From positions 66,015 through 130,014 of the forward strand of contig JAQGGW010000003.1 of assembly GCA_028289135.1 (NCBI GenBank): DNA of 64,000 nucleotides. Direction: 5' to 3'. A program made the position numbers and the translations under genes. This DNA is from Candidatus Saccharimonadota bacterium. GTDB taxonomy: Bacteria > Patescibacteriota > Saccharimonadia > Saccharimonadales > JACDBH01. Positions 7,242 through 44,951 of this stretch are shown in pieces; the first letter of the stretch is position 1; every line of letters starts with the position of its first letter. Below the pieces are notes generated by a model that saw only the letters and a list, made by a program, of their open reading frames with translations, was not told the DNA's origin and made no database searches.

Positions 7242-7318
7242 TGGTAGCGATGACAAGATTCGAACTTGTGACCCCAGGCTTATGAGTCCTGTGCTCTAAC
7301 CAACTGAGCTACATCGCC
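7242..7318 (-). tRNA. tRNA-Met (CAU), elongator type, CCA encoded
   Basis: Reverse complement GGCGATGTAGCTCAGTTGGTTAGAGCACAGGACTCATAAGCCTGGGGTCACAAGTTCGAATCTTGTCATCGCTACCA folds as a cloverleaf and closely resembles E. coli elongator tRNA-Met. Confidence 0.85.
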
Positions 7319-27593: not shown

Positions 27594-28736
27594 CTAAATA
27601 CTTAATTCCCTTCTCGCTAAATTAGCTCTTTCTGAAACTTCTTCCCTTGATGCGCCGAGCACAGTTATATGGCCGACTTTGCGCGCTGGACGAGGAGCTT
27701 TGCCATAAAAATGCGGGTGCGTATCTGGCAAAGCTAGGACTCGGTCAAGTCCTTCGCGTGCTAGAGGTTCATCGCGGGTGCCTAAAATATTGATCATTGC
27801 CGCTGCTGGCGCGCGCATACCTACAGGCCCAAGTCGCATGCCGGTAATAGCACGGATGTGCTGCTCAAACTGCGAAGTAACATTGGCCTCGATGGTGTGA
27901 TGTCCAGAGTTATGGACGCGCGGTGCAATTTCGTTAATCATAACCTCGTCCCCACGCAGGAACATTTCTATCGCAAAGATGCCTGCACCGTGGAATATTT
28001 TCATTGCTTCGTGAGCTATTTCCTCTGTCCGCAGGGCAACCTTTGGGCTGATGTCTGCAGGTGCTACAACGGTATGGCAGATGCTGTCTTTGTGCACCGT
28101 TTCAACCGTTGGATACATGGCTATATTCCCGGCAATATCCCGTCCTAATACTACCGATAATTCCTTATCAAAATCTATAATTCTTTCTGCGTAAACATCA
28201 CCCCAATCACTTCCTAATGCTTCATTCGCAACAACAAGATCGCCCGTATACACATGGTTTTTTCTGCCATCAAATCCATCAGTTCTTTTCTTAAGGATAA
28301 CCGCGCCGCCAAGCGCCTCGCGTGCATCCTCTGCCAGCTCTGAGTTTGTTTTCCACGCTGGCAAGCTGGACAAATCGACCATAGGAGCAACAGGCAAACC
28401 GGCCAGTCTAAGTTCGGATTTTTGCCTATACTTATCCATTATTTTCAGAAGACTAAATGGAGAAGGCTCAACATTAAAGCCCAGCTCTTCCAGCTCGCAA
28501 AGAGTTCGCGCCCCAATATGTTCCACTTCCCAAGTAACAACATCTACTTGGCCCGCAAGCTCCCTAATTGCATCTGGATCTTTTATGTTGCCGTCAATTT
28601 GTCGTGCCCCGGCGTGTGTTGCCGGACAATTTGGAGCAGCTTCAAGCACTGTTACTTGAAAACCTAGCGGACGTGCGGCTTCAGTAAGCATTTGTCCCAG
28701 CTGGCCACCACCTACAATTCCAATACGCTCTACCAT
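27594..28736 (-). CDS. purK: N5-carboxyaminoimidazole ribonucleotide synthase (PurK), ATP-grasp
   Basis: GGGQLGQML N-terminus, ATP-grasp layout, ...APRVHNSGH. Confidence 0.85.
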   Translation of the reverse strand: MVERIGIVGGGQLGQMLTEAARPLGFQVTVLEAAPNCPATHAGARQIDGNIKDPDAIRELAGQVDVVTWEVEHIGARTLCELEELGFNVEPSPFSLLKIMDKYRQKSELRLAGLPVAPMVDLSSLPAWKTNSELAEDAREALGGAVILKKRTDGFDGRKNHVYTGDLVVANEALGSDWGDVYAERIIDFDKELSVVLGRDIAGNIAMYPTVETVHKDSICHTVVAPADISPKVALRTEEIAHEAMKIFHGAGIFAIEMFLRGDEVMINEIAPRVHNSGHHTIEANVTSQFEQHIRAITGMRLGPVGMRAPAAAMINILGTRDEPLAREGLDRVLALPDTHPHFYGKAPRPARKVGHITVLGASREEVSERANLARRELSI

Positions 28737-29062
28737 GGCGCTATCGCCATGGTAGCGTCCTCAAATACCATACAGTGCGGCAAAAGACCTGCACGTACTA
28801 AATGTGGAAAATCTCTATTGTTCTTTGCTGCTTCATGTAAAACATTTATAACAGCTGCTGGATTTATAACATCACCAAAACTAGCAACCTCAATATTAAC
28901 CGCTAGTTGTACATCGGCAACTTCAGGTATAGGGGACGCCATATAGCCCAGCCTGAGTGTATCAAGTGCTTTCTGTATTTCTTCAACATGTCCCCTATGC
29001 ATATACCCTCGCTTGTTTGTTCTTATTCTACGTGGTGTAAGAGTCAATGCAAGCATGAGCAT
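28730..29062 (-). CDS. Hypothetical protein, 110 aa, 7-nt overlap with purK
   Basis: ORF only. Start set to the first ATG (29062); the track start at 29074 is TTG. Confidence 0.4.
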   Translation of the reverse strand: MLMLALTLTPRRIRTNKRGYMHRGHVEEIQKALDTLRLGYMASPIPEVADVQLAVNIEVASFGDVINPAAVINVLHEAAKNNRDFPHLVRAGLLPHCMVFEDATMAIAPW

Positions 29063-29067
29063 TTTAT

Positions 29068-29095
29068 TTGACAATATTTACATAAGTAGTATTAT
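29068..29095 (+). promoter_or_regulatory. Promoter: -35 TTGACA (29068-73), 16-nt spacer, -10 TATTAT (29090-95), 6 nt before the leader-peptide ATG
   Basis: Read directly. Same -10-to-ATG spacing as other leaderless candidates in the window. Confidence 0.5.
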
Positions 29096-29101
29096 ATAAA
29101 T

Positions 29102-29149
29102 ATGGTTCACAACTATATATCTCAGTCATCCCGTCGCACCCGTATATAA
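29102..29149 (+). CDS. Arg-rich leader peptide MVHNYISQSSRRTRI (15 aa)
   Basis: ATG 29102 to TAA 29147-49. Arg codons CGT, CGC and CGT at 29132-29143 lie in attenuator segment 1. Confidence 0.5.
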   Translation: MVHNYISQSSRRTRI

Positions 29150-29218
29150 CGGGACGATGCTTGTAGTTGTGCAAAAATTTAAATAAGCCTTACATCGCCC
29201 CGGCAAACGGGGCTTTTT
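29132..29218 (+). promoter_or_regulatory. Transcription attenuator with mutually exclusive 1:2, 2:3 and 3:4 pairings
   Basis: Segment 1 29132-43, segment 2 29149-59, segment 3 29193-202, segment 4 29208-13. 1:2 forms 10 bp with an internal loop, 2:3 forms 9 of 10 bp (CGGGACGATG/CATCGCCCCG), and 3:4 is the terminator. Confidence 0.55.
29197..29218 (+). terminator. Intrinsic terminator of the arg leader
   Basis: GCCCCG-gcaaa-CGGGGC followed by T5, 16 nt upstream of ATG 29234. Confidence 0.65.
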
Positions 29219-29233
29219 AATGTTGAGGATAAT

Positions 29234-29731
29234 ATGAATTTTGTATTAATTGAGGGATCATTTGATCTAAATAAGATTGGCTATGATTTTTCGGAAGTTA
29301 TAGAAGAAAGCGAGCAAGGTTGCATGTTACCGCTTTCACCGGACACTATAGGCGCAAACATGCTGACTGGCGTTGTGCTGGTTGGCCAGACCGTTGTGGC
29401 TACTTCCGCGATAAAAGAACACGTGACCGTTTTAGATAAAAGAAATCCTGATTTTTGGCAGCCGTACGACTTTGCGCTGCTGGGTGGGTGCGTTACAACA
29501 GAACGGTATAAGAGAATTGGAATTAACACACAGATGATAAAGGAGCTCACACAAAAGTCAGCTGTTCATCCTGGGCTAACGGGTGTAACTGGCTTTTTTA
29601 ACGAACAGTCAGCACAGGTCGTAAAAAGACTAGATTTTACAGATAGTTGTTTTTGGCTTTGGGGTCAAAAAGAAATAAATGAAAACGGAAGAACAAGACA
29701 CAGTCTAATTTTCCCCGCGAAAGCGCAATAA
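29234..29731 (+). CDS. Hypothetical protein, possibly GNAT-like acetyltransferase; first gene of the arg operon
   Basis: GAGGA SD. Weak RxxGxx motif (RYKRIGIN). Function not established. Confidence 0.4.
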   Translation: MNFVLIEGSFDLNKIGYDFSEVIEESEQGCMLPLSPDTIGANMLTGVVLVGQTVVATSAIKEHVTVLDKRNPDFWQPYDFALLGGCVTTERYKRIGINTQMIKELTQKSAVHPGLTGVTGFFNEQSAQVVKRLDFTDSCFWLWGQKEINENGRTRHSLIFPAKAQ

Positions 29732-29758
29732 ATAATGTTCAAGTTAAAGGAGAAAATC

Positions 29759-31018
29759 ATGAAACACGTTAAACCGTATACGAAAGTTGCTTCATACGAA
29801 GCCGAAAAAGGAACATTTAAAAAATGCCTGCTGCTATATTCTGGAGGTTTAGATACTTCGGTCATGCTGAAGTGGATACAAGAACAATATGACTGCGAAG
29901 TGGTGGCGCTTACGATTGATCTTGGCCAAACGGCTGATGATCTTAACGTCATCAAACAAAAGGCTTTAGACCTTGGCGCAGTTGAGGCGATTGTTTACGA
30001 TGCCAAGCTAGAGTTTGCCGAAAAACTTTTAAGCTCGGCTATTAAAGCTAATGCCGACTACCAAGGCGGCTACGCGCTGAGCACACCGCTCGGAAGAGTA
30101 ATAATCTCCGAAGTGGCGGTTAAGATTGCCAAAGAATATGGCTGCCAGGTTGTGGCGCACGGCTGCACCGGCAAGGGCAACGACCAGGTAAGGTTTGAGG
30201 GCTACATTACCACCCTTGATCCAAGCCTCAAGATTATTGCACCAGTTAGAGAATGGGGCATGGGCAGACAAGAAGAGATTGCCTACGCGCACGAAAACAA
30301 CATCCCTATTAAACAAACGGCCGAGGTGCCGTATTCGTACGACGAAAACATGTGGGGCAACACAGGCGAAGGCGGCGAGATTGAAAACCCATCGCTGGAA
30401 CCAAAGCTGCCGGCAATTTTGCAGTGGTGTAAGACAATTGAGGAGACACCTTCTGAGCCAACTTACATTAAGCTAGGCTTTGAAAAGGGCGTGCCTAAAA
30501 AGCTAGATGGAAAGTCTTTGCCGCTGGCCGAGATCATTAGCGCCTGCAACAAATTGGGAGCTGAGCATGGAGTGGGTGTTGTCCAGCTGATCGAAGACAG
30601 ATTGGTTGGGCTTAAAGTTAGGGGAGTATACGAAAACCCTGCAGCCACTATTTTGATTGCTGCTCACAAAAAGTTAGAACAGCTTGTTTCGACCAGGGAA
30701 GAAAATAAATTTAAAACTTTGATTGATACGCAGTGGGCCTACATGCTCTACGCCGCGCAGTGGTTTGAGCCAACGATGCACCATTTAAACGCCTACATCG
30801 ACGACCAAAACCAAAAAGTCAGCGGCACAGTTACCGTTAAATTGTTTAAAGGCAAGACAACGGTTGTGGCGCTGGATTCGCCGTTTAGTTTGTTTAACGA
30901 AAACTTGGCCACATTCGAGAAAAATGCTGCTTTCAACCAAAACGCGTCGCCAGGCTTTATTGAGATCTATAACCTGCCGCAAAAAACAGCCAAAGGAGTA
31001 TACGACTATGACAAATAA
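29759..31018 (+). CDS. argG: Argininosuccinate synthase
   Basis: YSGGLDTS ATP-PPase motif. Start at ATG 29759 behind AAGGAG rather than 29735. Confidence 0.9.
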   Translation: MKHVKPYTKVASYEAEKGTFKKCLLLYSGGLDTSVMLKWIQEQYDCEVVALTIDLGQTADDLNVIKQKALDLGAVEAIVYDAKLEFAEKLLSSAIKANADYQGGYALSTPLGRVIISEVAVKIAKEYGCQVVAHGCTGKGNDQVRFEGYITTLDPSLKIIAPVREWGMGRQEEIAYAHENNIPIKQTAEVPYSYDENMWGNTGEGGEIENPSLEPKLPAILQWCKTIEETPSEPTYIKLGFEKGVPKKLDGKSLPLAEIISACNKLGAEHGVGVVQLIEDRLVGLKVRGVYENPAATILIAAHKKLEQLVSTREENKFKTLIDTQWAYMLYAAQWFEPTMHHLNAYIDDQNQKVSGTVTVKLFKGKTTVVALDSPFSLFNENLATFEKNAAFNQNASPGFIEIYNLPQKTAKGVYDYDK

Positions 31019-32200
31019 ACTGTGGCAAACTGCCGCGTCCGTACAACTTCACCCGACAATTGAAAACTATACGGTCGGGGATGACCATGTCCTAGACCAA
31101 AAATTGATGGGATATGACATTACGGCCAGCAAGGCTCACGCCCAGATGCTGGAAAGCGTGGGCTTGTTAACCATGTCTGAAGCAAATGAACTTACCGACG
31201 CGCTGGATACACTGCAAAAACTTTGGGAAAAGGGTGAGTTTAAAATACAAAAACACCAAGAAGATGGCCACACCGCAATTGAGCAGTATTTAACGGAAAA
31301 ACTTGGTGATACAGGCAAAAAAATCCACACCGTCAGAAGCAGAAACGACCAAGCACTTGTCATGATGAGGTTGTACTTAAAAGACAATTTACAAAAAGTG
31401 GGCTTACAAATATCGCAGGTTGCAACGGCGCTTGAAAAAGCCGCAATAAAGTCCGGCAAAACGCCAATGCCGGGCTACACCCATACCCAAAAAGCCATGC
31501 CGACAACAGTGGCAACATGGCTGATGGCATATGCCGATGGTTTTAAAGACGCTAAAAAGCTTCTTGATTCGACGCTGGAAATTATTGACCAAAACCCGCT
31601 TGGTTCGGCCGCGGGTTTTGGCAGCAGTTTGCCGATTAACAAGGCGCACACCACCAAAACACTGGGATTTAGCAAAACCCAAGACAACCCCATGTACTGC
31701 GGCATTTCGAGAGGTTTGTTTGAGCTGCTCGCCGTTCAGTCTTTAAATTCAGCGATGATTTTAAGCGGTAAATTCGCGGCCGACTTACTCATGTTCACGA
31801 CGCAAGAATTCAACTTTTTTAGTTTGCCCGACTCGTTTACAACTGGCTCGTCGATAATGCCGCACAAACACAACTATGACGTTTTAGAAATCATGAGAGG
31901 CCAGGCTCATATGTTTGGGCCTTTGGTGCAGCAGCTTAACGCCGTGGTTGTGGGTATTGGCAGCGGCTACCACAGGGACCTGCAGCTTACTAAAAAAGTT
32001 ACGTTGGAAGCTTTTGACACTGCCTCTTCTACACTTGAGTCCTGGAGCTTGTTGTCTGCAATTTAGTCGTACATTCAGACGTCTTAGCAAAAGCCATAAC
32101 ACCCGAAATGTTAAGTGTCTCAGAAATAGAAAAGTTAGTGACCGCAGGCACGCCATTCCGTGACGCCTACCAAAAAGTAAAGCAAAACTTTTTAATCTAA
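31008..32200 (+). pseudogene. argH: Argininosuccinate lyase interrupted by an apparent frameshift near 32040 (352-aa ORF to TAG 32066, C-terminal 53 codons in another frame to TAA 32200)
   Basis: Fumarate-lyase fold (GSSIMPHKHN signature). Frame 0 ends ...STLESWSLLSAI*. The frame starting at 32039 encodes VLELVVCNLVVHSDVLAKAITPEMLSVSEIEKLVTAGTPFRDAYQKVKQNFLI*, matching the conserved ArgH C-terminus (..PFREAH..). Confidence 0.7.
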
Positions 32201-32839: not shown

Positions 32840-32868
32840 TTGACAGTTTATCTCTGTTAGAGTATTAT
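32840..32868 (+). promoter_or_regulatory. Promoter of the initiator tRNA: TTGACA, 17 nt, TATTAT
   Basis: ttgaca at 32840-45 and tattat at 32863-68; the tRNA starts at 32912. Confidence 0.55.
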
Positions 32869-32911: not shown

Positions 32912-32986
32912 CGCGGGGTGGAGCAGTGGCAGCTCGCGTGGCTCATAACCACGAGGTCCCAGGTTCGAGTCCTGGCCCCGCTACCA
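32912..32986 (+). tRNA. Initiator tRNA-fMet (CAU), CCA encoded
   Basis: CGCGGGGTGGAGCAGTGGCAGCTCGCGTGGCTCATAACCACGAGGTCCCAGGTTCGAGTCCTGGCCCCGCTACCA. C1:U72 mismatch and close similarity to E. coli tRNA-fMet. Confidence 0.85.
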
Positions 32987-32998
32987 AGCATTAGCATA

Positions 32999-33026
32999 AA
33001 GACCTCAGTTGACTGAGGTCTTTTTA
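32999..33026 (+). terminator. Rho-independent terminator
   Basis: AGACCTCAG-ttga-CTGAGGTCT followed by T5. Confidence 0.7.
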
Positions 33027-44874: not shown

Positions 44875-44951
44875 GGGGGTATAGCTCAGTTGGTTAGAGC
44901 AGTCGGCTCATAACTGATTGGTCCTTGGTTCAAGTCCAAGTACCCCCACCA
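44875..44951 (+). tRNA. tRNA with CAU anticodon, probably tRNA-Ile2 (lysidine-modified)
   Basis: GGGGGTATAGCTCAGTTGGTTAGAGCAGTCGGCTCATAACTGATTGGTCCTTGGTTCAAGTCCAAGTACCCCCACCA. Resembles E. coli ileX more than metT. tilS is present in the window. Confidence 0.6.

Follow-up and report, generated by a model that had tools for sequence, protein, structure and literature searches.

The 64,000-nt stretch of DNA analyzed here (hereafter the window; contig JAQGGW010000003.1, positions 66,015–130,014 of the forward strand) derives from a metagenome-assembled genome (MAG) of Candidatus Saccharibacteria. On its + strand, a short leader precedes an operon composed of an open reading frame (ORF) of 165 amino acids (aa), argG and argH. 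We conclude that this leader is very probably a ribosome-mediated (Yanofsky-type) transcription attenuator, which senses charged tRNAArg and controls the 165-aa ORF–argG–argH operon. An Arg leader-peptide attenuator upstream of argG/argH had been proposed in an initial annotation of this DNA, and comparison with related loci together with ribosome-position modeling supports the proposal. As far as sequence and folding models can tell, every sequence-testable defining feature of ribosome-mediated transcription attenuators is present. The elements of the leader, in 5′ to 3′ order, are:

29068–29073 (+): −35 hexamer TTGACA, matching at 6/6 positions and separated by 16 nt from the −10 hexamer.
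29090–29095 (+): −10 hexamer TATTAT, ending 6 nt before the ATG at 29102.
29102–29149 (+): leader ORF of 15 codons plus stop, MVHNYISQSSRRTRI, without a Shine-Dalgarno (SD) sequence; Arg-run ORFs are enriched upstream of argG.
29108–29117 (+): 5′ arm of the outer helix P0, CACAACUAUA, covering codons 3–6 and pairing with 29162–29171.
29132–29143 (+): segment 1 with the Arg codons CGT CGC (ACC) CGT, pairing with segment 2.
29150–29159 (+): segment 2, CGGGACGATG, pairing with segment 1 or segment 3.
29162–29171 (+): 3′ arm of P0, UGUAGUUGUG, within a block CTTGTARTTG that is conserved in relatives whether translated or not.
29193–29202 (+): segment 3, CATCGCCCCG, the 3′ arm of the antiterminator, overlapping the 5′ arm of the terminator (29197–29202).
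29197–29218 (+): intrinsic terminator GCCCCG-GCAAA-CGGGGC plus TTTTT, with a stem of six G-C pairs (29197–29213) and a T-run at 29214–29218.

The leader ORF reads ATG GTT CAC AAC TAT ATA TCT CAG TCA TCC CGT CGC ACC CGT ATA TAA. Its Arg codons, CGT (29132–29134), CGC (29135–29137) and CGT (29141–29143), account for three of the last five codons before the TAA stop (29147–29149), and the ORF lies exactly where the initial annotation had placed it. It is presumably translated. A window-wide scan for Arg-run ORFs with terminators returned this leader as the only intergenic one, and the other two matches resemble fragments of longer reading frames. Across the leaders identified in this study, 84% of the Arg codons are CGT or CGC (CGY), compared with 21% in argG of the same loci, where AGA, AGG and CGA dominate. 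This bias could reflect the sensing of one tRNAArg isoacceptor or, equally, the need for a GC-rich segment 1.

All four segments and the three helices that had been described, 1:2, 2:3 and 3:4 with its run of five Ts, were recovered. Segments 2 and 3 pair at nine of ten positions, and the resulting antiterminator (29150–29159 with 29193–29202) shares nucleotides 29197–29202 with the terminator, so that the two structures are mutually exclusive. The 130-nt region folds with −36.2 kcal/mol (z = −3.16), better than all 200 dinucleotide shuffles, and its minimum free energy (MFE) structure holds the 1:2 pairing (29132–29136 with 29155–29159; 29139–29143 with 29149–29153). Calculated in isolation, the 1:2 hairpin, the antiterminator span and the terminator reach −11.3, −13.1 and −12.5 kcal/mol, respectively. 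The 10-bp helix P0 (29108–29117 with 29162–29171), absent from the earlier description, extends the 1:2 hairpin to −20.5 kcal/mol; judged by eye, its conservation in relatives is only partial. The leader stop codon (29147–29149) sits at the edge of segment 2, which begins at 29150, and the likeness to trpL drawn earlier holds in this respect. The distance from the terminator to the operon needs a small correction: measured from the ATG at 29234, the T-run ends 15 nt upstream rather than 16 nt.

We compared argG loci from species-representative genomes (80) and from metagenomes (80). A nucleotide search with the intergenic region of the window, followed by a search with a leader profile, retrieved homologues upstream of argG or its operon in other Saccharimonadales. 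In all homologous leaders, an ATG lies upstream in the same frame as CGY CGY (CGY) xxx (xxx) CGT, and the Arg codons vary by synonymous CGT/CGC changes and by 3-nt indels. Their stop codon moves from leader to leader (directly after RRTRI in the window, RRRNRT in L004 and RRRSSRTHGSCPSIC in L010), and the nucleotides of segment 2 are conserved regardless. A moving stop next to a conserved segment 2 indicates coding constraint on the Arg run and constraint at the RNA level on the part downstream.

Covariation was evaluated on alignment A1, which comprises 15 Saccharimonadales leaders aligned with MAFFT and unfitted to any structure. For the antiterminator 2:3, 94.7% of the cells were paired and 9/10 pairs showed compensatory changes, values that none of 500 column shuffles attained; sliding the partner by 1–3 columns lowered pairing to 37–53%. 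The terminator 3:4 was paired in 94.3% of the cells (compensatory changes at 6/7 pairs) and the 1:2 helix in 77.5% (4/8 pairs). From A1 alone, RNAalifold derived the antiterminator as consensus. L001 (ArgG 82% identical), the closest of the relatives that have a full leader, illustrates this covariation: its segments 2 and 3, GGAAGCTATC and GATAGCTTCC, are perfectly complementary to each other and quite unlike the window pair CGGGACGATG/CATCGCCCCG. An alignment of related argG upstream regions had been suggested as a check by the initial annotation; the Arg codons and the three alternative helices are kept in it, with compensatory changes.

Two observations accompany this alignment. The block 3′ of segment 2 (29160–29171; A1 columns 81–92), which reads CTTGTAGTTGTG in the window and CCTTGTAATTG in the majority of relatives, is conserved irrespective of whether the leader ORF includes it; with the ribosome stalled, it pairs with AUAAGC (29183–29188). 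It may serve for pausing or to extend a helix. The second-closest relative, L081 (positions 602–723; ArgG 79% identical), has only two Arg codons (MNFFKLDTVVFRRS, followed by the stop) and a weaker terminator, and appears to be a minimal form of the device or one in decay.

To assess breadth independently of sequence similarity, we scanned the 250 nt upstream of argG in 52 dereplicated regions for ORFs that begin with ATG, span 8–45 codons and contain at least three Arg within five residues. Such Arg-run ORFs were present in 29 of the 52 regions. The reverse complement gave 1/52, and 200 dinucleotide shuffles averaged 2.2 and peaked at 6. Leu (7 vs 4.9 expected) and Ser (6 vs 2.7), which have six codons each like Arg, remained close to expectation. 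Most loci with Arg-run ORFs belong to the Candidate Phyla Radiation (CPR)/Patescibacteria, and 36 of 37 curated leaders have a hairpin with a T-run 10–50 nt beyond the ORF. The same architecture was found in lineages whose leaders have no detectable similarity to that of the window. Leader peptides identified include MTYRHNIVIVARRRRSDSEG in a human oral Saccharibacteria clade (L046–L080, with a Nanosynbacter sp. at L066), MSYHQFADFRRRLRH in Ca. Saccharimonas aalborgensis, MIIYNYINTNLRRRLWA in Peregrinibacteria, MDYTKLYLHARRRRYRCAG in Gracilibacteria and MKQILINNNVRRSRHSCESWLA in Magasanikbacteria. Judged from these sequences, the putative device is widespread upstream of argG in CPR/Patescibacteria.

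Most argG loci labeled as non-CPR (Melioribacteraceae, Balneolaceae and one Gammaproteobacterium) had no leader. Separately, MAGs labeled Calditrichia (L020, 2579–2614; L094, 2669–2704) carry the Arg-run ORF MICSKARRRNT upstream of argG, where no terminator was found, and MAGs labeled Gammaproteobacteria (L034, 3807–3866; L105, 2807–2866) carry MKNYLLNNRRRMFLSVRVG upstream of argG, together with a terminator. These cases represent either occurrences of the device outside CPR or mislabeled bins.

The promoter places the start of the transcript close to the leader ATG. TTGACA-16-TATTAT matches the consensus at 11 of 12 positions and is joint best in a 6.5-kb promoter scan, and both hexamers were found as previously described, with the −10 ending 6 nt before the ATG. 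From this geometry, transcription probably starts at or next to the A of ATG 29102, and no SD sequence precedes this ATG. Among 35 curated leaders, the best −10 lies 6–7 nt from the ATG in 17 and 6–9 nt in 24. A −35/−10 pair at a distance of 6–9 nt is found at 16/35 leader ATGs, compared with 1.2% of the 9513 remaining ATG triplets in these loci. An SD-like motif stands before 2/35 leader ATGs vs 19/33 first genes after the terminator. The conserved promoter-to-ATG geometry and the lack of an SD support the earlier suggestion of an apparently leaderless transcript.

For 36 leaders belonging to several CPR classes, we modeled how the position of the ribosome would affect the choice between the alternative structures. 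Because attenuation is decided before segment 4 exists, equilibrium folding of the full leader was dropped as a measure; instead, the transcript was cut at the end of segment 3, and the readout was the probability that segment 3 is paired upstream. The resulting values for the window and the median of the 36 loci were:

Untranslated: window 0.11, median 0.61.
A site on the second Arg codon: window 0.81, median 0.81.
A site on the last Arg codon: window 0.17, median 0.42.
A site on the stop codon: window 0.15, median 0.12.
Shuffled spacer, stalled: window 0.39 (p = 0.01), median 0.39.

Of these loci, 27/36 exceeded their own shuffles at p ≤ 0.05. Stalling at the Arg codons had been expected to free segment 2. 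According to the model, this would apply to the first two codons of the window leader but not to the third: with the A site at 29141, half of segment 2 is already masked. The leader may thus act as a minimal sensor with two effective Arg codons, like the two Trp codons of trpL. The companion expectation, that full translation of the leader favors termination, agrees with the low upstream pairing of segment 3 (0.15) when the A site is on the stop codon.

The proposed mechanism would operate as follows. Transcription would start at or next to the A of ATG 29102, giving a leaderless mRNA whose 15-codon leader is translated while RNA polymerase proceeds. When Arg-tRNA is scarce, the ribosome would stall with CGT or CGC (29132–29137) in the A site, covering segment 1 and leaving segment 2 free. 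Segment 2 (29150–29159) could then pair with segment 3 (29193–29202) as soon as the latter is made, so that no terminator hairpin would form and polymerase would enter the operon. When Arg-tRNA is plentiful, the ribosome would reach the stop codon (29147–29149) and mask segment 2; when the leader is not translated at all, segment 2 would be locked in the hairpin formed by P0 and 1:2. With segment 2 masked or locked, segment 3 would pair with segment 4, and transcription would end at the T-run (29214–29218), with 29218 as the predicted end point. Read-through would be expected to respond to arginine.

Several observations weigh against this interpretation. No Arg-run ORF was present within 250 nt in 23/52 argG loci, some of which have other operon layouts. 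Of the three helices, 1:2 shows the lowest conservation, and in many relatives it is not dominant and the untranslated RNA is predicted to form the antiterminator. In the window, only the first two of the three Arg codons are placed for antitermination. Equilibrium folding of the full window leader predicts the terminator even in the stalled state (P = 0.97). As the terminator wins at equilibrium, the switch must be kinetic, with the antiterminator preceding the synthesis of segment 4, which is assumed here; classical attenuators are generally held to decide kinetically. A further promoter-like site, weaker than the first (29077–29106, 9/12 match), would place the transcription start downstream of the ATG, and the leader ORF would then be untranslatable. 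Finally, to our knowledge, transcription-translation coupling is undemonstrated in CPR bacteria.

The covariation data establish a conserved terminator/antiterminator alternative, and any effector could in principle drive such a switch. If a protein or ligand controlled the attenuator (as in a riboswitch or with a TRAP/PyrR-like RNA-binding protein), the CGY repeats and helices would form the binding site and the ORF would be incidental and untranslated. The near-exclusive use of CGY (84% in leaders vs 21% in argG) could indeed be a sequence motif rather than coding. However, an ATG located 6–9 nt after the −10 invariably shares the frame of the Arg run, and indels in or before the run are multiples of three. 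Moreover, the dissimilar leaders MTYRHNIVIVARRRRSDSEG, MDYTKLYLHARRRRYRCAG and MIIYNYINTNLRRRLWA share only the Arg run and the architecture, which is unexpected for an aptamer or protein site, and no Rfam family matched. We therefore regard control by a protein or ligand as very unlikely. A device without any sensing, in which the hairpin and T5 either terminate constitutively but incompletely or mark the end of a gene for a small RNA or micropeptide, would fit the thermodynamic dominance of the window terminator at equilibrium, and in any case a small RNA, the leader transcript of ~117 nt, would accumulate. Yet a constitutive terminator needs no antiterminator, whereas the antiterminator is the best-conserved structure here, with compensatory changes at 9/10 pairs. 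The Arg-specific enrichment is tied to argG across lineages, and the device always lies directly before the operon on the operon strand. These properties leave an unregulated terminator slightly less probable still.

The remaining alternative reverses the logic of the switch. A nascent peptide that senses free arginine, as in the fungal arginine attenuator peptide or TnaC/SpeFL, would arrest the ribosome at high arginine and thereby alter the expression of the genes that follow. A short upstream ORF before an arginine-metabolism operon is compatible with such an element, runs of basic residues can slow ribosomes, and argG/argH of Saccharibacteria might serve something other than plain biosynthesis. 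Arrest peptides nevertheless need a conserved peptide, and conservation between the lineages compared here is limited to the Arg run; downstream of it, the residues vary as the stop moves while the RNA stays conserved. The modeled geometry, too, suits starvation sensing, in that a stall at the Arg codons would lead to the antiterminator. Peptide arrest is consequently the least probable of the explanations considered, and attenuation by ribosome stalling at Arg codons remains the reading that we favor.

A more far-reaching version of this reading is conceivable but doubtful: arginine synthesis in CPR/Patescibacteria might be controlled mainly or solely by a phylum-spanning family of leaderless Arg-tRNA attenuators, which would read CGY codons almost exclusively and thereby the charging of one tRNAArg isoacceptor. 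Repeated origin or diversification would have to be invoked, because leader sequences are unrelated between classes. If true, episymbionts with minimal regulatory repertoires would gauge host-supplied arginine or citrulline directly through translation.

The operon downstream of the leader consists of the following ORFs:

29234–29731 (+): first structural ORF, 165 aa, an orphan and possibly a divergent GNAT, with the SD GAGGA at 29225–29229.
29735–31018 (+): argG, argininosuccinate synthase, supported by Pfam and the NCBIfam equivalog NF001770 (499 bits vs a cutoff of 334).
30864–32066 (+): argH, argininosuccinate lyase, Pfam Lyase_1; the ORF is given as listed by the tool, and its true start is probably near 31015.

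The designation of the first ORF as GNAT-like is plausible but weakly supported in the window. The ORF is identical to the NCBI hypothetical protein JWO47_406, a homology search against 5.8 billion proteins returned only the self-match, and neither Pfam nor NCBIfam gave a match. The L002 ORF in the corresponding position, a Pfam-positive GNAT, showed weak similarity in BLASTP (E = 0.07), in an alignment that spans motif A, R/Q-x-x-G-x-G/A in GNATs (GGCVTTERYKRIGINT with GGWVVNPEFRRQGIGT), while no significant similarity to the same-position ORFs in L010 and L111 was detected. A single-sequence AlphaFold (AF2) model was unusable (predicted local distance difference test score of 32). The ORFs between leader and argG in L002 and L010 are Pfam-positive GNATs. 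Small, very divergent ORFs occupy the space between Arg leader and argG/argH in L002 (3467–3985), L010 (3368–4000), L111 (491–1027) and the window (29234–29731), and by sequence a fast-evolving acetyltransferase-like gene seems to be co-regulated with argG/argH in several lineages.

The ArgH ORF scored 273 bits against TIGR00838 (cutoff 279.5) and covered profile positions 9–340 of 455. ArgH of the window thus apparently lacks the usual C-terminal part, and ArgH of L111 is likewise short (407 aa). Upstream of the leader, a small ORF (28730–29002), purK and purE are encoded on the opposite strand, leaving a divergent intergenic region of 231 nt (29003–29233). Because these genes sit on the other strand, the terminator cannot serve them. 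Arginine genes are arranged differently in the closest metagenomic ArgG relatives (L082–L084), in which argD-argB/NAGS lie upstream of argG and no leader was found within the fetched DNA, so that these loci were uninformative about the window leader. This fuller arginine cluster (L083, 1–4281; also L082 and L084; ArgG 73–75% identical) includes an acetylornithine-aminotransferase-like gene and a 428-aa acetylglutamate-kinase/GNAT fusion; a complete arginine pathway is unusual for CPR. Elsewhere in the window, three tRNA-Met genes were noted at 7242–7318 (−), 32912–32986 (+) and 44875–44951 (+), the second of which has its own near-consensus promoter (TTGACA-17-TATTAT, 32840–32868) and a strong terminator (32998–33023).

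Leader-peptide attenuation is textbook RNA-based control and is known for Trp, His, Leu, Thr, Phe and Ile/Val, while arg genes are usually controlled by ArgR/AhrC repression and, in some Firmicutes, by T-boxes. A scan of positions 28000–30500 against Rfam 15 (E ≤ 10) gave no match to Trp_leader, His_leader, Leu_leader, Thr_leader, a Leu/Phe leader or a T-box. Only chance-level matches appeared, to sroH over the leader (E = 4.3) and to a group I intron in the 165-aa ORF (E = 1.4). At gathering level, no family matched in 11 leader-bearing loci. The ARG-box pattern TGAATWWWWATTCA was not found in 29003–29233 with up to three mismatches, a weak test since ArgR sites of CPR bacteria are unknown; window-wide, its 38 matches did not exceed chance (44.9). 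A search of full-text literature, which leaves out most subscription journals so that an earlier description is possible, yielded neither an Arg leader peptide controlling arg genes nor any attenuator from CPR bacteria. Within the same limits, these results fit the earlier statement that no Arg-codon leader had been described for an arg operon, and none in CPR.

An Arg version would fill a long-standing gap in leader-peptide attenuation, and it would be among the first concrete, testable cis-regulatory mechanisms for the barely cultivable, regulator-poor CPR/Patescibacteria. It would imply transcription-translation coupling and leaderless initiation in these bacteria, as well as regulation of argG/argH (citrulline to arginine) as an arginine-sparing route, which bears on metabolic host dependence. 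In practice, the motif can improve the annotation of small ORFs and terminators in CPR genomes. For comparison, TM7x, the first cultured Saccharibacterium, was reported without argG and argR (PMC12815258).

The window leader resembles the classical trp, his, leu, thr, phe and ilv attenuators in its short codon-bearing ORF, the helices 1:2, 2:3 and 3:4, and a terminator before the first gene. It differs from them in that it would sense arginine, resides in a CPR host and matches no Rfam family. Moreover, enterobacterial leaders have a 5′ untranslated region with an SD, whereas the window transcript is apparently leaderless. In its presumed purpose, switching arg genes on at low arginine, the device corresponds to ArgR/AhrC and Arg T-boxes. 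Unlike these, sensing would proceed through translation of Arg codons, and neither an ARG-box-like operator nor a T-box was found. A 2005 survey listed T-boxes as the known RNA-level control for arginine (PMC1262725).

Leaderless leader peptides have been described in the actinobacterium Streptomyces lividans (leuL, trpL, ilvL, metL and thrL; PMC8079986). There, the ORF lies at the 5′ end of the transcript and is followed by hairpins, several with a U-run, before amino-acid biosynthesis or tRNA-synthetase genes. None of the eight leaders described there depends on Arg, however, they belong to another phylum, and their transcription start sites were mapped by RNA-seq, whereas that of the window is derived from promoter geometry only (PMC8079986). 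The nearest Arg-codon sensor is orf34 of Salmonella speF (PMC6386406). Low-arginine pausing at two consecutive Arg codons selects an mRNA structure there, and it matters where the ORF ends with its stop codon. The output, as reported, comprises RNase G sensitivity, Rho-dependent termination and exposure of the ribosome-binding site of an ornithine decarboxylase gene. Whereas speF orf34 is a 34-codon ORF in a long leader, the 15-codon ORF of the window would act through intrinsic termination before arginine-synthesis genes. Taken together, sequence comparison supports an Arg-specific family within the ribosome-mediated transcription attenuators, apparently leaderless and widespread in CPR/Patescibacteria.

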